Shown here: positions 2,209 to 22,888 of the stretch, in pieces
Layout of the letters: every line of letters starts with the position of its first letter
Position numbering within the stretch: the stretch's first letter is position 1
Source: an uncultured Gammaproteobacteria bacterium
GTDB taxonomy: Bacteria; Patescibacteriota; Patescibacteriia; Magasanikbacterales; UBA922
Reading direction: 5' to 3'
Assembly: GCA_964345045.1 (NCBI GenBank)
Contig: CAYFPM010000001.1
Coordinates: 375,632-439,631 of the forward strand
DNA: 64,000 nt
The notes under the pieces: model-generated
Database searches by the model: none
What the model saw: only the letters and a program-made list of their open reading frames with translations
Told to the model about the DNA's origin: nothing
Program-made: the position numbers and the translations under genes

Positions 2209-2967
2209 ATGGAAAAACACTCAAATTCACCTTTGGGGGATATGTCTCCAACTAAAATGTTTGCAGTAGGAGCTGTGGCCGGGATTTTGGTACTATGTAC
2301 TATTGGATTTTTTATCCTACTCGGAATAGTGCTAAATGGGGATTCTGCCAAATCGGGTTCAAACGGCAATATAAAAGTGGTAGAACAACCAAGTAATAAT
2401 GGCGCTGGGGCAGGTAATCAAGCACCTACTCCTCCTGCCGGAGAAGTTCCTGCTGTTACAGAAGATGATCATATAAAGGGTGGCAAAAATGCCAAAGTTA
2501 CTTTGATCGAGTATTCTGATTTTGAATGTCCATTCTGTGTTAGATTTGTGCCAACTCTACAACAAGTCGAACAAGAATATGGTGATGATGTTCGTATAGT
2601 GTATCGTCACTTCCCATTGTCATTTCACCCAGAAGCTACTCCATCGGCCGAAGCTTCGGAATGTGCGGCAGAACAAGGTAAATTTTGGGAATTTCACGAT
2701 GTTTTGTTTGAAAACCAAACTAGACTTGGTAGTAGCTTCTATACAGAAGTGGCACAAGACCTAGGTCTAAACATGAACAAGTTTAATGATTGTGTAAGTT
2801 CTAGAAAATACCAACAAAAAGTGATTGATCAGCAAAATGCTGGTGCTGTCGCCGGTGTAGGAGGCACCCCTCATACCTTTGTCGTGGGCAATGATGGTAG
2901 AGCTATCCCTGTTTCAGGAGCTTTGCCATTCTCTCAAATAAAAGCAACTATTGATTCTTTGCTATAG
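2209..2967 (+). CDS. DsbA-family thiol:disulfide oxidoreductase (thioredoxin fold, membrane-anchored)
   Basis: N-terminal TM helix followed by FECPFCVRF (CPFC active site) and DsbA-like spacing; lies directly downstream of the dsbB-like gene. Confidence 0.75.
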   Translation: MEKHSNSPLGDMSPTKMFAVGAVAGILVLCTIGFFILLGIVLNGDSAKSGSNGNIKVVEQPSNNGAGAGNQAPTPPAGEVPAVTEDDHIKGGKNAKVTLIEYSDFECPFCVRFVPTLQQVEQEYGDDVRIVYRHFPLSFHPEATPSAEASECAAEQGKFWEFHDVLFENQTRLGSSFYTEVAQDLGLNMNKFNDCVSSRKYQQKVIDQQNAGAVAGVGGTPHTFVVGNDGRAIPVSGALPFSQIKATIDSLL

Positions 2968-3021
2968 GCAAGCAAACAATAAAGCAAAAAAACCAGAAAG
3001 CAATAAAAATAGAATAGTAAA

Positions 3022-3048
3022 GCACCGGGGTTGTCCTGGTGCTTTTTA
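3022..3048 (+). terminator. rho-independent terminator after the dsbA-like gene
   Basis: gcaccggggttgtcctggtgc hairpin followed by TTTTT. Confidence 0.5.
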
Positions 3049-3103
3049 ATTAGTTGATTTAATGATTTAAAGTTTTTTTGCTTTATTGTTTTCTTGATTT
3101 CAT

Positions 3104-3175
3104 GTCACCCTTCGGGTGATCCCCGCCTGCCATGGTCTGAAGCCCAAGCGACTGGCGGGCAGGAGCCGAAGGCTG
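3104..3175. repeat. GC-rich hairpin element (UUCG-tetraloop hairpin plus second GC stem)
   Basis: gtcacccttcgggtgatc (stem CACCC/GGGTG with TTCG loop) is identical to an 18-mer at 24163. It is followed by ccgcctgcc...tggcgggcagg. The motif gactggcgggca also occurs at ~14200. Confidence 0.5.
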
Positions 3176-3206
3176 GCTTTAAAGCTTTTATGTTTTTTTG
3201 CTCTCG

Positions 3207-3224
3207 TGCTATAATGTAGCTACT
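3207..3224 (+). promoter_or_regulatory. extended -10 promoter (TGcTATAAT) abutting a start codon, possibly leaderless
   Basis: gtgctataat at 3207-3216; ATG at 3225 is 9 nt downstream, so the transcript may be leaderless. Confidence 0.3.
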
Positions 3225-5237
3225 ATGACCGCCCCGCAACTAAAACCAACCCATTCTTCCGAAGAAGACAAAGAAAATTTGTGCTTGTTTGCGCAGACCG
3301 ATTTTCGCAATCAGATGCGTCGTTTTGGTATAAAAACAGACGATCGACGTCGTCATATGTATGTAGTGGGCAAAACCGGTATGGGCAAGACCACCATGAT
3401 GGAAAACATGGTACTTCATGATATTTATAATGGACATGGAGTGGGAATTGTAGATCCTCATGGAGACTTTGCCGAAAAAATAATCAATTATATTCCACCA
3501 CACAGAATCAACGATGTGGTTTATTTCAATCCGGCCGACACCAGTTTCCCCATAGGATTTAATATTTTGGAAGTAAAAAATGATGAACAAAAACACTTGG
3601 TAGCTTCTGGACTTATGGCTACTTTCAAAAAGATTTGGCCGGATGTATGGAGTTCTAGAATGGAATACATCTTGAACAACACTCTTTTGGCACTTTTGGA
3701 CTATCCTGGTTCTACCTTGCTCGGGATAAATAGATTATTGGCTGACAAAGCCTACAGAAAAAAAGTTATTAGCAAATTGAAGGATCCGGTAGTAAAAGCT
3801 TTTTGGCAAAATGAATTTGCCAGCTATAACGACAGATATGCCCAAGAAGCTGTAGCTCCGATCCAAAACAAGATTGGTCAGTTTTTGTCTGCCAGTGTGA
3901 TTAGAAATATGGTAGCTCAGGTAAAATCAACTATAAACATCCGAGAAATTATGGATGGCCAAAAGATATTTGTAATGAATCTGTCCAAAGGTAGAATTGG
4001 AGAAGACAACAGTAGACTGCTTGGTGGTATGCTTATTACCGAAATCCAATTGGCTGCTATGGAAAGAGTAGACACTCCCGAACACGAAAGAAAAGATTTC
4101 TTTTTGTATGTAGACGAATTTCAAAACTTTGCTACCCCCAGTTTTGCCAATATTTTGTCCGAGGCTCGTAAATATCGCCTTAGTTTGATTATGGCGCACC
4201 AGTATATAAAACAGCTAGACGAAATAGTGGGGGATGCTGTGTTTGGGAACGTTGGTACTATTGTAACTTTTCGGGTGGGTGGTCCAGATGCCGAAGTTTT
4301 GGTAAAAGAATTTACTCCAACTTTTATGGAAGAAGATATTGTGAATCTAGAAAAGTTTCATATATTTTTGAAATTAATGATAAACGGAGTAGCTTCTCTA
4401 CCTTTTAGCGCTATGACTATGCCGCCAATTGGCTCGCCAACCGGTAGTGCCGAAAAAGTAATAAAAGTTTCTAGAGAAAGATATGCCAAAGACAAAAGCA
4501 GTATAGAAGACAAAATCACCAGGTGGAGTGGCATGGAGCCGGTAGAATCACAAGAAGAAGAATTTGATGTGGATACTACAAAAAGACCGCCCAAGAAAAA
4601 AGAATCCTCCAAAACAATATCGCTTAGTGATTTGAAACCAAAAGAAAATAATCCTCCAAAGGATAGTTCCAAAAAAACAAGTTCACAAAAACCAAAAGAA
4701 GAACGATCCTCTGCTTCTGATCGTCCAAAAGGAGACAAAGGGGCAGGAAATTCGTCTGCCGGCTTGGGACAAGAAAATAAAAATGGCCAAGCTGTAAGTG
4801 GTGGTGAGAGCCATGATTCGGAAAAGAAAAAAAGAAAACGAAAAAGAAAGAAAAAGAGTGAAGGCCAAAATAATGCTTCTTCTACAAATAATAATGGTAG
4901 TCAACCAAAACCAGAAGACACCCAAAAATCTCTATCCGAATTGCAATCGAGTAAACAAATAGAAAAGACTAATAAACAAGAAGAAGACTCGCCAGAAAAA
5001 CAAGAAACAACCAATACAGAGTATAAAATTAAAGATAGTAAACAACAGGTAGCAGACGTTGATGAAAAAATAGAATATAAGCAAGCTGTAGTAGAGAACA
5101 AAGATAATCAAGAAGAAAAAAACACAGAACCGATGATAAGTCTGGCAGACTTGTCGGAGAAAAAAGAAGACAAACCTACAGAAAACTCTGCCCCAAAAAA
5201 ATTAGACGAAAATGATATAATTAGTTTTGATTCTTAA
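3225..5237 (+). CDS. AAA-like ATPase of the VirD4/TraG/TraD coupling-protein type (DUF87/TraM-recognition-like) with long K/E/S-rich disordered C-terminal tail
   Basis: Walker A VVGKTGMGKTT; Walker B-like FLYVDEFQNF; C-terminal ~230 aa low-complexity lysine/glutamate/serine-rich region. The ORF track starts at TTG 3198; ATG 3225 is preferred. Confidence 0.55.
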   Translation: MTAPQLKPTHSSEEDKENLCLFAQTDFRNQMRRFGIKTDDRRRHMYVVGKTGMGKTTMMENMVLHDIYNGHGVGIVDPHGDFAEKIINYIPPHRINDVVYFNPADTSFPIGFNILEVKNDEQKHLVASGLMATFKKIWPDVWSSRMEYILNNTLLALLDYPGSTLLGINRLLADKAYRKKVISKLKDPVVKAFWQNEFASYNDRYAQEAVAPIQNKIGQFLSASVIRNMVAQVKSTINIREIMDGQKIFVMNLSKGRIGEDNSRLLGGMLITEIQLAAMERVDTPEHERKDFFLYVDEFQNFATPSFANILSEARKYRLSLIMAHQYIKQLDEIVGDAVFGNVGTIVTFRVGGPDAEVLVKEFTPTFMEEDIVNLEKFHIFLKLMINGVASLPFSAMTMPPIGSPTGSAEKVIKVSRERYAKDKSSIEDKITRWSGMEPVESQEEEFDVDTTKRPPKKKESSKTISLSDLKPKENNPPKDSSKKTSSQKPKEERSSASDRPKGDKGAGNSSAGLGQENKNGQAVSGGESHDSEKKKRKRKRKKKSEGQNNASSTNNNGSQPKPEDTQKSLSELQSSKQIEKTNKQEEDSPEKQETTNTEYKIKDSKQQVADVDEKIEYKQAVVENKDNQEEKNTEPMISLADLSEKKEDKPTENSAPKKLDENDIISFDS

Positions 5238-17095: not shown

Positions 17096-19123
17096 ATGTT
17101 TATAGAAAAAGGTCTAAAATCAAAATCAGAAAGGTTATTATTTCTAGGCTTAGCTTTTATCACGTCGTTTCTTTACGATTTTTTGGTTTGGGATCAAAAT
17201 CTAGGGCTTGGTTTTGTAGCTTTTATTTTAGTTTCAATACTTTTGTTTGTACTCTGCGTGGGCTTGGTAAAAAAACAAGGTTTGCGTTGGTCACTGGTTT
17301 TACTTTTGCCAATCACTGTTATGGGTTTTGACATTCTTGTATATAACAACCAATTGGTTACCATTGGTGTGCCTATATTTGTTGTAATTTTGTTATTGAT
17401 TTTTTTTAGTCTATATACTCTCAAAAATCCAAACAGATTAAAATTTTCTTTTTTGGGAGTGCCTGTTTTAAAAAGTGCTGATTTGCCCATTGCCAAGTGG
17501 GGCAAAATTTACAAAGATATCTTTGGCAAATCAGAAGATAGTGAAAAGAATATTTTTGGTAAAATATTTTTGGGTTTTATTATAGCTTTACCTATTTTGT
17601 TTATTTTTGGAATACTTTTTGCCAAAGCCGATGCCTTGTTTGCAGATTGGTTAAATAATTTTTTAAGCATAGAGCCGGTAGACTTTTGGCGTATTATTAG
17701 AACCGTTGCTATCACTCTCTTGCTCGGTGGACTTTTTTACGTAGTTATTGACAATAACTATCATCTAAAAGAAAGACTATCTTCGGTAAAAAAATTTGAC
17801 GGCCTAATAATCAGTATTGTTTTGGGAAGTATAAATTTATTATTTGCTGTATTTCTTTTTTTCCAGTTTAAGTATTTGTTTGGTGGAGTAGCGTTTGTAC
17901 TTGATAATGGATTAAGTTTTGCTGAGTACGCCAGAGCTGGTTTTTTTCAATTGTGTTGGGTGGTAGCTCTGTCTGCTCTAATGCTTATAATAATCTACCG
18001 ATCATTTGTAGCTCACAAGGGAGCTTGGTCAGTATCAATACTTCAAACTTTATTGATCGTTCAGGTTATGGCTGTGGCTGCTTCGGCTCTAAAAAGAATG
18101 AATTTATATCAAGCAGAATTTGGCTATACAGTTTTGCGTTTGTATGTAGAATGGTTTATTTATTTTACCTTGATCATACTCGCTTTGGCTGGTTTTAGTC
18201 TGCTGGCTAGATTTAGTTTCCGTCGGTTTTACCATACTTCTGTGTTAATGGGTGTTTTGGCATTTTGTTTGGTTGCTTCTGTAAATGTTGATTTGGTAAT
18301 TGCCAAAGAAAATGTCGCTAGAAGTATAAATCAAGATAAAGCTTTGGATTTGGATTATTTAAAGTCATTGTCATCAGACACCATGCCGGCATTAATGCCT
18401 TTGTTTAAAGTCGATAACTTGCAAAAGCTTGATTATTATCAAAAATTGCAACTAAAAGGGATTTTGGATGAAATAAATAATAATTTTGGAAAAAGAGATT
18501 CTTGGAGAGAAATAAATTTTGGAGCTGTTAAGAGTCAACTATTGCTTCTGCAAATTCCAGAAACAAGCACAAAAAGTTTAAATAATTTGCAAAATAAAAA
18601 TATTTCTTTTAATGAAGAATTTTCACAGTTAAGCAAACAAACGGTACTAGCAAATTGTCCATACGATTTGATGAATAAATTTAATTTAGACAATAGTGTT
18701 GGTAATTTTAGTTTTTCTTGTGTTGAAAAAAAAGACGCTGATCAGGTTTATACTATTATTTTGAAGAAACCTGTATGGCTTTTCCCAAATATTCTAGATT
18801 CTAAAAACACCTTAGAAGATCCTGAATTTTTAAAAACTTCTTATTTGGTTTATCGAAACGACAATGTTTCTAAACCAATTTTTCAAAAGGATTTTGAGTT
18901 TGATATTAAAATAGTGTCCAACAAAGACTATTACAAATTGGCAGATTACTTTGCCCCTCAATTTGTAGGTATTAGAAATAGCGATAACTATATGTCGAAG
19001 AATAATTTTTTCTTGCAAAAAGATGGTTCTATTTTGGAGTCAGATTTTTATAGTTTGGATAATTACTTATATAGCTTTACTTTTTCTAATAATATTTTAA
19101 TCAAAAAAAACATTACAAAATAA
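17096..19123 (+). CDS. large polytopic membrane protein with C-terminal soluble domain, function unknown
   Basis: About 10 predicted TM helices in the first 400 aa, then an N/K/S-rich domain. Confidence 0.45.
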   Translation: MFIEKGLKSKSERLLFLGLAFITSFLYDFLVWDQNLGLGFVAFILVSILLFVLCVGLVKKQGLRWSLVLLLPITVMGFDILVYNNQLVTIGVPIFVVILLLIFFSLYTLKNPNRLKFSFLGVPVLKSADLPIAKWGKIYKDIFGKSEDSEKNIFGKIFLGFIIALPILFIFGILFAKADALFADWLNNFLSIEPVDFWRIIRTVAITLLLGGLFYVVIDNNYHLKERLSSVKKFDGLIISIVLGSINLLFAVFLFFQFKYLFGGVAFVLDNGLSFAEYARAGFFQLCWVVALSALMLIIIYRSFVAHKGAWSVSILQTLLIVQVMAVAASALKRMNLYQAEFGYTVLRLYVEWFIYFTLIILALAGFSLLARFSFRRFYHTSVLMGVLAFCLVASVNVDLVIAKENVARSINQDKALDLDYLKSLSSDTMPALMPLFKVDNLQKLDYYQKLQLKGILDEINNNFGKRDSWREINFGAVKSQLLLLQIPETSTKSLNNLQNKNISFNEEFSQLSKQTVLANCPYDLMNKFNLDNSVGNFSFSCVEKKDADQVYTIILKKPVWLFPNILDSKNTLEDPEFLKTSYLVYRNDNVSKPIFQKDFEFDIKIVSNKDYYKLADYFAPQFVGIRNSDNYMSKNNFFLQKDGSILESDFYSLDNYLYSFTFSNNILIKKNITK

Positions 19124-19164: not shown

Positions 19165-21489
19165 TTGTTTACTGTTATGAAAACAAACGAACTAAGACAA
19201 AAATTTCTAGAATTTTTCAAAGAAAGAGAGCATGAGATAGTGCCCTCTGCTTCGCTATTGCCAGAGAACGACCCAACCACTCTCTTTACAGGCTCTGGTA
19301 TGCAGCCAATGGTCCCGTACTTGCTTGGAGAGAAACATCCAAAGGGAGTGAGACTAGCAGATTCACAAAAATGTTTCCGAGCTCAAGACATTGAGGAAGT
19401 AGGCGACAATCGCCACACCACATTTTTTGAGATGCTTGGCAACTGGTCACTGGGGGACTACTTCAAAAAAGAACAAATTAGCTGGATGTTTGAATTTTTA
19501 ACAAAAGAGCTAAAGTTAGATCCAAAAAATATTTATATTACTTGTTTCAAAGGTAATGAAGCTTTGCAAATAGAAAGAGATGAAGAATCTGTAAAACTAT
19601 GGCAAGAAGAATTTAAAAAACTAGGTATAGAAGCTACTGTAGGAGAAAATCCAGAGGCAGATGGAATGCAAGATAATAAGATTTTTTACTACGATGATAA
19701 GAAAAATTGGTGGAGCCGCTCTGGAGTACCAGCCAAAATGCCAGAAGGCGAACCAGGTGGACCAGACAGTGAAATGTTTTGGGACTATGGCGTAGAATTG
19801 GGCTTGCACGAGAAGTCTGAGTGGAAAGATGAACCTTGTCATGTCAATTGTGATTGTGGCCGCTTTATGGAGATTGGCAATAATGTTTTCATGGAGTATC
19901 AAAAAGTTCAGAAAAAAATATTGTTCGTGGACGCGATGTATACTTTATTCGATGAAAATTGGCAACCTGTTGTTGAAGTTGTTGAAGCTGTAAAAAATAT
20001 ATCTACAAAATATGATCTAAAGGTATTTGTTATCACTAACGGACCAAAAGAGATTGTATCACAATCCATTAGCAATACTGATCTTAATGCAACAATCATA
20101 ACATACGAGAATAGCCCTAGTAAAAATAATCCGTCATATTTTGCTAAGGTTCTAGACGAATACAACTTAAATTCACTTGATATTTTATATATAGATCACA
20201 GCCAGGATAATCTTGCTTCTGCCAACCAGCACAACATTTCAGGGGTTCACTTTAAGGGGGTTGATTCACTTTCTATTGTTGACACCAAGTTGAGTGCCTT
20301 CCAAAAACTAGAACAACAAAACGTAGACGAAGGTAGTGGTCTAGAGCGAATGGTGGCAGCTACTATAAACAATCCTGATGTATTCATGATTGATGCTTTT
20401 GATAATGGACGAAGCGTATTAGAAGAGTTAAGTGGTAAAAAATATGGTGAAAGCGAAGAAGTAACCGAAGCTTTCCGCGTTATCTTAGATCATTTACGGG
20501 CTGCTACTTTCTTAATTTCCGACTCAGCTTATCCATCGAACAAAGACCAAGGTTACTTTACTCGCAGACTAATTCGCAGATCAGTACGCTTTGCTGCGAG
20601 CCTTGGTATAGAAGAAAACTTTTGTGGTAGAGTGGCCGAAGGCTTTATAGAGACTTACCAAGAAGCATATCCAAATCTAGGAGAAGAAAAGAAAAGCATT
20701 CTAGACAATATGAGTAAGGAAGAAGAGAAGTTCCGAAAAGCTCTAAAACGTGGAGCCAAAGAATATGATAAGAAAATAGATGAGATTAAAAAAAGTGCTA
20801 GCCAAGAAAATTATGGCGAGCTAGCCAAAATTGCTTTTGACCTATACCAAACCCATGGTTTGCCAGTAGAAGTATTTACAGATTACTTAAATAATATTGG
20901 TGTAGCGGTAGAAGAAATGAAAATGCTGGATGAGTTTGATAAAGTTGTCAAAGAACATCAAGCCGTATCTCGCGCCGGAGCCGAAAAGAAATTTCATGGT
21001 GGACTAGCAGATCATAGTGAAAAATCTGTGCGGGGTCATACGGCCACTCATTTGCTCCATGCAGCTCTCCGTGAAGTATTAGGCGAACATGTACAGCAAA
21101 AGGGGAGTAACATTACTCCAGAGAGAGTTAGATTTGATTTTTCTCATAGTGATAAGCTAACAGACGAAGAAGTTAAAAAAGTTGAAGACCTGGTAAACGC
21201 TGCTATAGAAAAGGACTACCCAGTGAGCTGGCACGAGATGACAGTAGACGAAGCTTACCAGAAAAAAGCCATTGGTTTTTTCCCAGAGCGGTATGATGAG
21301 ATTGTAAAAGTCTATACTATTGGCGATCCAGAAAAACCTATGAAAGCCGATCCAGAATCAGCAACTTTTTCACAAGAAATCTGTGGTGGACCTCATGTAG
21401 AACATACTAGCGTGGTAGGCAAATTCAAGATTGCCAAAGAAGAAGCTTTGGGGACAGGATTACGTAGAATAAAGGCATTATTAGAGTAG
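19165..21489 (+). CDS. alaS: alanine--tRNA ligase (short form lacking C-Ala domain) with ~145-aa internal insertion
   Basis: Class II core (FTGSGMQPMVPY, RHTTFFEMLGNWS), GSGLERMVAA, editing domain (HTATHLLHAAL, CGGPHVEH); extra block KKILFVDAMYTLF...VFVITNG...ILYIDHSQDN between FMEYQKVQ and GLERM. Confidence 0.85.
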   Translation: MFTVMKTNELRQKFLEFFKEREHEIVPSASLLPENDPTTLFTGSGMQPMVPYLLGEKHPKGVRLADSQKCFRAQDIEEVGDNRHTTFFEMLGNWSLGDYFKKEQISWMFEFLTKELKLDPKNIYITCFKGNEALQIERDEESVKLWQEEFKKLGIEATVGENPEADGMQDNKIFYYDDKKNWWSRSGVPAKMPEGEPGGPDSEMFWDYGVELGLHEKSEWKDEPCHVNCDCGRFMEIGNNVFMEYQKVQKKILFVDAMYTLFDENWQPVVEVVEAVKNISTKYDLKVFVITNGPKEIVSQSISNTDLNATIITYENSPSKNNPSYFAKVLDEYNLNSLDILYIDHSQDNLASANQHNISGVHFKGVDSLSIVDTKLSAFQKLEQQNVDEGSGLERMVAATINNPDVFMIDAFDNGRSVLEELSGKKYGESEEVTEAFRVILDHLRAATFLISDSAYPSNKDQGYFTRRLIRRSVRFAASLGIEENFCGRVAEGFIETYQEAYPNLGEEKKSILDNMSKEEEKFRKALKRGAKEYDKKIDEIKKSASQENYGELAKIAFDLYQTHGLPVEVFTDYLNNIGVAVEEMKMLDEFDKVVKEHQAVSRAGAEKKFHGGLADHSEKSVRGHTATHLLHAALREVLGEHVQQKGSNITPERVRFDFSHSDKLTDEEVKKVEDLVNAAIEKDYPVSWHEMTVDEAYQKKAIGFFPERYDEIVKVYTIGDPEKPMKADPESATFSQEICGGPHVEHTSVVGKFKIAKEEALGTGLRRIKALLE

Positions 21490-21617: not shown

Positions 21618-22043
21618 ATGATTGTCCATAGAAAACTTATGAAAGGCTATAATTTTTCGCAAAATGGCAACATACAATACCCAGATTACGGGAAGATTTG
21701 CCCGGCCACATTTCATATAGATCTTTCTGGCTGCCAAGCAAAATTTTTGCAGAGCAGATCTGTAGAGCATTTTTTCGATAGGGTGTGCCATCTGTTAGGG
21801 GTACAAAGGAGGGGGGATGCTCTTTTGCTGTATTTTGACGAAAGTCCGGATTTCAAAGGTTACAAAGCTGTACAAATTTTATCCAAGATATTTATCACCG
21901 GTCATTTTTGCCAAAACAAAAATTCTGTTAGCTTGGATATTTATTCGTATAGAGATTTGGATATCTATAGGATAGGAGCTTGGTCCAAAAAATATTTTGA
22001 TGCCAATAACCTAGCTATTCAGGATTTTACCAGATTGGTATAG
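21618..22043 (+). CDS. hypothetical protein
   Basis: 141-aa ORF, Cys/His-containing, no motif; weak. Confidence 0.3.
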   Translation: MIVHRKLMKGYNFSQNGNIQYPDYGKICPATFHIDLSGCQAKFLQSRSVEHFFDRVCHLLGVQRRGDALLLYFDESPDFKGYKAVQILSKIFITGHFCQNKNSVSLDIYSYRDLDIYRIGAWSKKYFDANNLAIQDFTRLV

Positions 22044-22045
22044 AT

Positions 22046-22888
22046 CTATAGTGGGCCAAATATTTTTTTAAATCTATTTTTTATTTTTTGAGCATCTTTT
22101 GGATGTTTTTTTAATACCAATTTTGCTTTTATCTTTCTTTTTACTAATTCGATAATATAATCTGGGTCAATCTCATTGTAGCTAGGAAATTTTTTATAAA
22201 TCTCGTCTATAAAATTTACAGTTTCTTGATCCAAGGTAATCGTCAAAATATAATCATCTATAACTGTAAAACTTTTGTTTCGCTCTTTTTTAAAAGATTC
22301 TCCATCTGGCAAAAGAAAGTATTTTTGTCTGGGATATTTTTCCCAGATTTTTTTACTATATCGGTCGAGTGGGGTATTCCCTCCCACAATCATATAATCA
22401 TCACTTACTAGTTTGTGAAAAGAGTTCAAAAACTGATCATTTTGTTTTTGGATAATTAGATCAAACCAAGTATGAGGACAATAGCTAGTGGCATAAGTTT
22501 CTGTAGAGTCATGTGCCATAGCCAAAAGTACCTGCGCCCAAGAACCATCCAACGTAACCATATCACTAAACTGCCAACTGATTTTTTGTTTTTCGTCTTT
22601 TGGCAAAATACTTTTTAAATAATTCAAATCAAAATAAACACTCTCTGCACGTTCGGCAAATTTGGCCAGGTTGAGTATCCAAGGTATGCGCAAAGAATAA
22701 GTTGTTTTGTTTTTTATAATAACGGCGTCTTGTTCTAATTGTTTCAAGACCTTGTATACAGATTGAATAGAAACCAAAATATCGTTTTGTCTACATTTTT
22801 GGTGAATTGCTTTGGCACTAAGGTTTGGCCTTTCTGACAGGGCATGAATTATACAGTTTTCTAGTTGTAGATTTATACCCAGTAGCAT
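22046..22888 (-). CDS. winged-helix (HTH) domain protein with uncharacterised C-terminal domain
   Basis: N-terminal LSAKAIHQKCRQNDILVSIQSVYKVLKQLEQDAVI resembles a wHTH; rest unknown. Confidence 0.4.
   Translation of the reverse strand: MLLGINLQLENCIIHALSERPNLSAKAIHQKCRQNDILVSIQSVYKVLKQLEQDAVIIKNKTTYSLRIPWILNLAKFAERAESVYFDLNYLKSILPKDEKQKISWQFSDMVTLDGSWAQVLLAMAHDSTETYATSYCPHTWFDLIIQKQNDQFLNSFHKLVSDDYMIVGGNTPLDRYSKKIWEKYPRQKYFLLPDGESFKKERNKSFTVIDDYILTITLDQETVNFIDEIYKKFPSYNEIDPDYIIELVKRKIKAKLVLKKHPKDAQKIKNRFKKIFGPL

Follow-up and report, generated by a model that had tools for sequence, protein, structure and literature searches.

The 64,000-nucleotide (nt) stretch of DNA considered here, referred to as the window (positions 375,632 to 439,631 of contig CAYFPM010000001.1 in GenBank assembly GCA_964345045.1), was deposited as an uncultured Gammaproteobacteria bacterium and is placed by GTDB in the Patescibacteriota (Magasanikbacterales, UBA922). 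It carries alaS, the gene for a small-type alanine–tRNA ligase (alanyl-tRNA synthetase, AlaRS) of 770 aa, at 19177 to 21489; all features are on the + strand unless stated otherwise. The region for the catalytic domain is interrupted by a segment of 381 nt, or 127 codons (K250 to L376; 19912 to 20292), that encodes a complete cap-less core of the HAD-IA type (HAD, haloacid dehalogenase-like), related to E. coli YihX and called mini-HAD below. The most probable reading is that a whole cap-less YihX-like HAD-IA gene was inserted in frame, recently and in a lineage-specific manner, into the gene of a small-type AlaRS, at the tip of a long β-hairpin right before motif 3, and that the product would be a functional AlaRS with a tethered HAD hydrolase. 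Residues are numbered in the 774-aa frame that begins at a TTG codon, unless 770-aa numbering is indicated.

Limits and authenticity of the insertion

The gene is a single uninterrupted open reading frame (ORF), and an identical protein (P0001) is present in public assemblies. Its nearest ortholog (P0002, 643 aa) is 89–90 % identical at the amino acid level and lacks the insert. The distance from FMEYQKVQ to the sequence ending in NVDEGSGLER amounts to 140 residues in the window protein versus 13 in this ortholog. At the DNA level, the contig carrying the ortholog (L003) aligns with the window at 82 % nucleotide identity with one internal gap of exactly 381 nt, placed by MAFFT at 19914–20294 and, when read by codons, at K250–L376 (19912–20292). 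The tblastn match of P0002 to the window breaks at 19908/20296. In the preliminary description, an insert of about 145 aa had been located within 19780–20330; the codon limits do fall inside this interval, while the size has to be corrected to 127 aa. In an alignment with the AlaRS fragment of Aquifex aeolicus, residues up to 251 of the query correspond to residues up to 207 of the chain, and the alignment resumes at query residue 381 with chain residue 211. By this alignment, the approximately 127 extra residues stand in place of a short turn of the A. aeolicus enzyme.

Among the best 120 AlaRS matches, P0001 is the sole protein that combines a PF00702 domain with a length of about 770 aa. 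None of the other 119 carries PF00702 and almost all of them are 613–674 aa long; P0049 reaches 775 aa through an N-terminal extension alone and is insert-less. The alaS loci of 32 GTDB species representatives all gave match lengths of 1.83–1.97 kb, which is the insert-less size. The possibility that the segment is a common AlaRS linker variant, which the preliminary description had put forward as an alternative, is thus contradicted by its absence from all 119 other AlaRS proteins and from the 32 GTDB loci. A word-indexed protein search with the insert and its flanks (162 aa) returned no match even though the identical P0001 is in the database, so this null result marks a limit of sensitivity and not the uniqueness of the sequence.

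The G+C content of the insert is 33.9 %, as compared to 39.9 % for the rest of alaS, and that of third codon positions (GC3) is 27.6 % versus about 34–35 %. This would agree with a donor gene of foreign origin or with different expression, and is not decisive. An imperfect direct 8-mer is found at both junctions (AAGTTCAG at 19904–19911 and AAGTTGAG at 20287–20294) with a spacing of 383 nt, not 381. At the 381-nt offset of the insert, no direct repeat above chance was detected. The 8-mers were considered as a target-site duplication or a trace of microhomology and were rejected as such, and no mechanism of insertion can be deduced from them.

It is hardly credible that the segment is an assembly chimera, a frameshift product, or an intein or intron that is not kept in the mature enzyme. 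The lower G+C content, the location at a conserved site within an essential gene, which is also where inteins are found, and the imperfect 8-mers at both junctions could be taken to point in that direction. However, the insert is exactly 3 × 127 nt long, in frame and without a stop codon, the sequence on either side of it is collinear with that of the ortholog, and the 8-mers do not have the true spacing. Two ENA assemblies obtained from separate runs, ERZ930070 (8.3 kb) and ERZ930065 (3.2 kb), match the window with 0 mismatches. To the extent that assemblies can show it, this excludes a chimera, and the insertion is confirmed as real. The intron, frameshift and chimera explanations, the latter two of which had been raised in advance, were rejected on these grounds. 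With respect to an intein, no Hint or intein Pfam family was obtained at E ≤ 1, and the predicted fold is that of a HAD protein. The insert starts with a Lys (KKILF) and ends with DTKL followed by SA; it carries neither the N-terminal Cys/Ser/Thr nor the C-terminal His-Asn followed by Cys/Ser/Thr that mark inteins, and this candidate was dismissed as well.

The host enzyme and the site of insertion

The window protein matches the NCBIfam model NF002436 with 634.8 bits (cut-off 529), the match being split in two around the insert, and TIGR00344 with 488.1 bits (cut-off 457.05). Pfam tRNA-synt_2c is found with an E value of 1e-103 and tRNA_SAD is present at residues 714–769. The N-terminal section (19177 to 19911) belongs to the class II catalytic domain, reaches as far as the first hairpin arm and includes N239 and V241 in NNVFMEY; it aligns with the catalytic fragments of A. 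aeolicus and E. coli AlaRS. Invariant columns of the 119-sequence AlaRS alignment fall into this section, which is modelled with a predicted local distance difference test score (pLDDT) of mostly >90. Class II motif 3 starts behind the insert with GSGLERMVAA (20332 to 20361), of which both G residues, the E and the R are invariant, and which aligns with GMGLER of A. aeolicus. The tRNA-recognition (helical) and editing domains follow at 20362 to 21489, with HTATH at 21037–21051 and tRNA_SAD at 21304–21471, as identified by Pfam and by the invariant HxxxH and CxxxH motifs. In alignments of 10 and of 119 AlaRS sequences, all invariant columns of the catalytic N/V strand, D-x-G and GxGxER and of the editing motifs HxxxH and CxxxH were seen to be kept in the window protein.

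The enzyme is 55–90 % identical to the listed AlaRS proteins of Patescibacteria. Codon comparison of the window alaS with the insert-less ortholog gave 231 synonymous-only and 63 nonsynonymous differences, a ratio from which strong purifying selection on the AlaRS parts can be deduced. With respect to the start of the gene, two in-frame candidates exist: TTG at 19165 (774 aa) and ATG at 19177 (770 aa). The latter is used in the public gene calls, and the orthologs start at the corresponding Met.

The protein ends with RRIKALLE, at the same place as all aligned relatives, and has no C-Ala domain. This absence, mentioned in the preliminary description as if it were peculiar to the gene, is real, but it is ordinary: the close relatives, with lengths of 630–655 aa, all end alike, and the 595-position model NF002436 is matched. 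In its passages on the subject, a preprint describes a "small-AlaRS" subgroup that consists of the catalytic, tRNA-recognition/ATL and editing domains and lacks both the cradle-loop barrel and C-Ala (10.1101/2023.05.29.542759). According to the same passages, these enzymes occur in bacteria of the Candidate Phyla Radiation (CPR), in DPANN and in some other archaea, and a transfer of small-AlaRS into DPANN has taken place; a HAD insert is not mentioned in them (10.1101/2023.05.29.542759). The window AlaRS has its domain order, C-terminus and conserved motifs in common with this subgroup. It differs from its small-type relatives, that is, the 119 others listed and the 32 GTDB loci, in that their hairpin tip is empty.

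The secondary structure assigned by DSSP to a full-length AlphaFold2 (AF2) model places the insert between two long β-strands, at the tip of a hairpin located just before motif 3. The first arm (19864 to 19914; model strand 230–246 in 770-aa numbering) runs into the insert. The second arm (20290 to 20340; model strand 372–388) leads back to the catalytic sheet and carries D388 and G390, a D and a G that are invariant in the 119 AlaRS sequences. N239 and V241 on the one arm and D388 and G390 on the other correspond to N212, V214, D235 and G237 of E. coli AlaRS. As the junctions are located some 9–14 residues further along the strands, the alanine pocket should be undisturbed by the insert.

The insert is a cap-less HAD domain

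The suspicion that a HAD-like domain resides within the catalytic domain of this AlaRS is borne out by sequence, profile and comparative evidence, by the predicted fold and by Foldseek. PF00702 scores 28.3 bits with the whole protein and 28.6 bits with the insert alone (gathering cut-off 26.4). PF13419 reaches 25.0 bits with the insert alone (cut-off 23.8) and 22.3 bits, which is below the cut-off, with the whole protein. A profile of the mini-HAD family, described below, matches the insert over positions 1–123 of 127. Taken from sequence and model, the HAD signature is far beyond chance. An AF2 model of the insert made with the family alignment has a pLDDT of 94.3 and a predicted template modelling score of 0.88, and consists of a five-stranded Rossmannoid core in which β1–β5 follow the HAD order and the motif residues lie where β1, β2 and β4 end. 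A Foldseek search of the PDB with this model retrieved HAD cores exclusively. An autonomous fold is thus predicted; such a model, together with a Foldseek search and the alignment that now maps the insertion to K250–L376, had been proposed as a check in the preliminary description.

The motifs named there fall on columns of the family alignment that are invariant or nearly so. Motif I, ILFVDAMYT (19918 to 19944; model strand 5–9), contains the predicted nucleophile D256 (19930–19932) at the end of β1, M258 at position Asp+2 and T260; the Asp is present in 32 of 33 family sequences and a T or C at +4 likewise in 32 of 33. Motif II, VFVITNG with T291 and N292 (20023 to 20043; model strand 39–44), is located at the end of β2 (T in 27/33, N in 31/33). 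The region of motif III, SPSKNNPSYF (20113 to 20142), supplies K320 (codon 20122–20124), a Lys found in all 33 sequences. Motif IV, ILYIDHSQDN (20182 to 20211; model strand 93–97), has Y342, D344, H345 and D348 at the end of β4, with Y in 33/33, D/E in 33/33 and H in 30/33. All family-conserved positions (D, T/N, K, Y, D/E-H, A and I) are kept in the insert.

The replacement of the second Asp of motif I, also noticed earlier, is no sign of decay. Position Asp+2 is occupied by M258 in the insert and by V, M, I or A across the mini-HAD family; the capped proteins nearest to it (FDLNKV, FDVGGV, FDLGNV and others) likewise lack the Asp, and so does YihX, which has a Gly (FDLGNVIV). As it is lacking throughout, its absence is a trait of the clade, and the insert is a member of the HAD superfamily, but from a clade with non-canonical acid/base chemistry.

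The nearest solved structure by sequence profile is that of the alpha-D-glucose-1-phosphate phosphatase YihX of E. coli (E value 2e-6; PDB 2b0c and 8pno; HAD-IA variant 3 clade), of which a complex with the transition-state analogue MgF3 has been deposited (8pno). Weaker profile matches were obtained with pyrimidine 5'-nucleotidase and YjjG models. In YihX, about 90 residues, forming a C1 cap, separate motifs I and II, whereas the insert has only about 25 residues and no cap at this place; motif IV is DD in YihX and D/E-H in the mini-HADs. The cap-less C0 HAD proteins MDP-1 (1u7p), HisB-N (2fpr), KdsC/YrbI and Cgl 2pr7 (137 aa) are farther away in sequence from the insert than the capped YihX, because of which the insert looks like a cap-deleted HAD-IA.

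A family of free-standing mini-HADs as donor

When 1.84 billion cluster representatives were searched exhaustively by phmmer with the insert as query, 49 matches were obtained, the best with 40 % identity and an E value of 8e-11. Most of them are proteins of 123–146 aa that match cleanly over the whole insert. A profile built from 32 domains retrieved 3334 proteins at E ≤ 1e-5. The best 120 of these are all free-standing proteins of 125–161 aa, most of them 127 aa, from Patescibacteria and DPANN (Nanoarchaeota, Woesearchaeota); where a name is given, they are called "HAD-IA family hydrolase" or TIGR01509. The modal length of the family is 127 aa (65 of 101 sequences). The insert aligns with these proteins from end to end, KKILFVD corresponding to MKTILVD at the start and TKL to ENL at the last residue. 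Since 127 codons align from first to last residue with proteins of 127 aa, the insert corresponds to a complete donor ORF from which only the start and stop codons are missing. It thus shares length, conserved residues and end-to-end homology with free-standing proteins such as P0190 of Candidatus Dojkabacteria, P0215 of a nanoarchaeon and P0298, which are the products of independent genes, whereas the window copy is embedded in alaS without a start or stop codon of its own.

The window insert is divergent, with 20–31 % identity to the main subfamily and at most 34 % to full-length members; its best standalone relative is 53 % identical over 57 aa. The search for close relatives among JGI metagenome contigs yielded none. 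No mini-HAD could be confirmed in the viral contigs of IMG/VR, so there is no sign of carriage by phages. The neighbourhoods of free-standing mini-HAD genes revealed no constant partner; GNAT and NUDIX genes are close by in some loci.

A second AlaRS with a mini-HAD and other fusions

A DPANN AlaRS of 700 aa (P0290, the full-length cluster mate of P0143; positions 2473–4575 of locus L041; 748 bits with NF002436) carries a mini-HAD at the same position, within one residue. Judging from the TFIIE-alpha gene on its contig, the host is an archaeon, in agreement with the transfer to DPANN that the preprint reports for small-AlaRS. The two host enzymes are 39 % identical and their inserts 24 %. The archaeal insert is 47–48 % identical to the free-standing proteins P0131 and P0133, which are of the "DGM...VVN" type and belong to another mini-HAD subfamily; it nevertheless keeps the family-conserved positions. 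As the two inserts are so dissimilar and the archaeal one is nearer to another free-standing subfamily, the insertions in the bacterial and the archaeal AlaRS are considered to be independent and convergent. In the favoured reading, this convergence would be explained by the hairpin tip being structurally permissive.

Mini-HADs were encountered in other aminoacyl-tRNA synthetases (aaRSs) as well. A bacterial-type LeuRS of 1318 aa from JGI data (P0130; TIGR00396, 884 bits) has, in frame, a mini-HAD at 1116–1225, in its C-terminal region, in addition to a GNAT domain at about 250–396 and a serine/alpha-beta hydrolase domain at about 437–603, before the editing domain. An NCBIfam model (NF040702) exists for IleRS with a GNAT domain. 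In a class II LysRS of 664 aa (P0126/P0292), the mini-HAD is C-terminal, after motif 3; this protein scores 434 bits with NF001756 and 387 bits with TIGR00499, both slightly below the cut-offs.

Outside the aaRSs, an N-terminal mini-HAD is fused to ribosomal protein uL22 in P0125 (298 aa) and probably in P0128 (263 aa). Pfam Ribosomal_L22 was confirmed for P0125 only, and by eye the L22 part appears to be of the archaeal type. Larger HAD domains are located at the N-terminus and inside the first GTPase domain of a Der/EngA double GTPase of 878 aa (P0149/P0293; MMR_HSR1 and KH_dom-like). In the source, this protein is annotated as "glucose-1-phosphatase" or HAD hydrolase. A VTT/DedA membrane protein (P0144) has two mini-HAD copies, one of which is degenerate. 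In two loci (L049, 180–1217; L081, 131–1108), the mini-HAD precedes a flavin-reductase-like domain (PF01613), and several further mini-HAD proteins have N-terminal regions that are membrane anchors or unassigned. The two flavin reductase fusions are the only real ones among about 80 sampled metagenome loci, a fraction that is biased low as the retrieval patterns favoured N-terminal, free-standing genes.

Function of the embedded domain

In the reading favoured here, the product would be a working AlaRS that carries an autonomously folded, Mg2+-dependent hydrolase module of the phospho-aspartyl type. By homology with its nearest characterised relatives, such as YihX, this module would most probably dephosphorylate a small metabolite, for instance a nucleotide or a sugar phosphate. 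Tethering would provide at most co-expression or co-localisation and not a new step in aminoacylation. The insertion, the predicted fold, the retained residues, the convergence and the integrity of the AlaRS are shown, whereas activity of the two moieties and the kind of substrate are inferred.

Several points weigh against this reading. The insert is known from one sequence, which bears on any ratio of nonsynonymous to synonymous substitutions (dN/dS) for it, and it is on a long branch, which would be compatible with relaxed constraint. Its open frame is enforced by selection on the AlaRS alone and is therefore no evidence for a HAD function. In cap-less HADs, closure of the active site often depends on oligomerisation or on a partner domain, and neither has been identified for the insert. 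In the full-length AF2 model, for which alignment depth came from AlaRS alone (MAFFT scattered mini-HADs over the whole AlaRS in mixed alignments), the AlaRS core is confident while the insert has a pLDDT of 30–73, and the orientation of the domains cannot be read from it. The profile and literature searches brought up no mini-HAD protein that has been characterised. With respect to alaS being the sole gene of its kind, neither a second alaS nor a second mini-HAD is present in the 64 kb of the window.

The main rival explanation is that the mini-HAD is a neutral passenger: it would have landed by illegitimate recombination in a tolerant loop of the AlaRS, would be catalytically irrelevant or decaying, and would have been kept since an imprecise deletion would kill an essential gene. 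This is rather unlikely, albeit in agreement with a number of observations. The insert occurs in a single population, next to a 90 %-identical ortholog without it, and its long branch would fit decay. Fusions of mini-HADs are rare in the sampled loci and limited there to flavin reductases, the partners as a whole are heterogeneous, and the position of the domain varies in other aaRS hosts, which is the C-terminus of LysRS but a site within the C-terminal region of LeuRS. Free-standing mini-HAD genes, moreover, have no conserved translation-related neighbours. On the other hand, seven out of seven invariant or near-invariant family positions are kept in the insert, and the archaeal AlaRS-embedded copy has also kept them, although the free-standing protein nearest to it is no more than 48 % identical. 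In addition, the same AlaRS site has been hit twice and aaRS hosts at least four times.

The repeated capture by aaRSs could, conversely, be taken to mean that the domain acts on translation itself. In the broadest form of this idea, the mini-HAD would be a previously unrecognised accessory module of translation in the ultra-small cells of CPR and DPANN that was repeatedly recruited into aaRSs (AlaRS twice, LeuRS, LysRS) and uL22 and that acts in cis, by destruction of by-products or toxins, on the tRNA 3' end or through oligomerisation; by analogy this is conceivable and doubtful. For the window protein in particular, functional coupling in cis might mean that the HAD domain hydrolyses, at the active site, an aminoacyl-nucleotide inhibitor or a by-product that is phosphorylated or of the adenylate type, acts on the tRNA 3' end, or gives back the oligomerisation lost with C-Ala, a proposal that is slightly more doubtful still. 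It would agree with the independent arrival of two mini-HADs at the identical residue of AlaRS, with the LeuRS and LysRS cases, with the uL22 fusion and with the larger HAD-type inserts of Der/EngA. The insertion between motifs 2 and 3 occupies the interval that in ProRS contains the hydrolytic INS editing domain, and the substrates of cap-less HADs are typically bulky or macromolecular. Immunity against aminoacyl-nucleotide inhibitors of aaRSs, as in the case of microcin C, has been described for enzymes of the GNAT, Ser-hydrolase and HIT classes (PMC8323819); the first two, which detoxify such inhibitors, are represented by the further inserts of the LeuRS P0130.

The coupling proposal is suggested by analogy and by the recurrence in aaRSs, and it is weakened by several of the observations presented above. 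The attachment is at some 9–14 β-strand residues from the residues of the pocket, the position of the domain differs among aaRS hosts, and the editing domain of the AlaRS is already intact. The nearest characterised relatives are small-molecule phosphatases, and partners without a role in translation (flavin reductase, the VTT/DedA membrane protein, membrane anchors) have been captured too.

Relation to other insertions in aaRSs

In class II aaRSs, insertions between motifs 2 and 3 are well known: the INS editing domain of bacterial ProRS, the GAD domain of bacterial AspRS and the insertion domain of HisRS. In class I enzymes, the CP1 domain is another insertion in the core. The statement in the preliminary description that inserted domains in aaRS cores are rare was therefore too strong. 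As in the window AlaRS, a folded domain of about 60–180 aa is accommodated in the class II core of ProRS, AspRS and HisRS without loss of the fold, and ProRS INS is a hydrolase, as is predicted for the window insert. The differences are that the former inserts are ancient, clade-wide and of other folds, whereas the window insert is a HAD and is present at the strain or species level.

Both the type of the host enzyme, in which a missing C-Ala is ordinary, and class II insertions between motifs 2 and 3 were thus already known. A HAD domain in any aaRS, or an insertion at this hairpin of AlaRS, was not reported in the literature searched, including that on CPR aaRSs. As far as this literature shows, four aspects are new: the HAD domain in an aaRS, the insertion at the AlaRS hairpin, a young event with an identifiable donor family, and its independent recurrence in bacteria and archaea.

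aaRSs are textbook examples of enzymes that acquire domains, and nearly all known acquisitions are ancient. The present event is seen at a young stage, with a 90 %-identical ortholog lacking the insert, a donor family that can be identified and the whole donor ORF inserted, and the same event recurs independently at the same residue across the divide between bacteria and archaea. It may be regarded as a natural experiment on the building of a folded enzyme into the core of an essential one, on the sites that tolerate this, and on whether minimal genomes use such fusions for coupling housekeeping chemistry to translation. It also draws attention to a HAD family of 127 aa that is abundant (more than 3000 clusters) and characteristic of CPR and DPANN. 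Should adenylates, aaRS inhibitors or the ends of tRNAs prove to be its targets, the domain would constitute a new class of accessory or editing-like module of aaRSs, analogous to ProRS INS; if it has no such action, the protein would still be a clean case of near-neutral domain accretion.

Genomic surroundings

The 64-kb window contains no tRNA genes, and none of the direct neighbours of alaS is related to HAD or tRNA functions. Upstream is the gene of a multi-pass membrane protein of 675 aa with DUF4153 (17096–19123). Downstream are an AdoMet-decarboxylase-like gene (21640–22043) and, on the − strand, an ORF of 280 aa that has no Pfam match (22046–22888).

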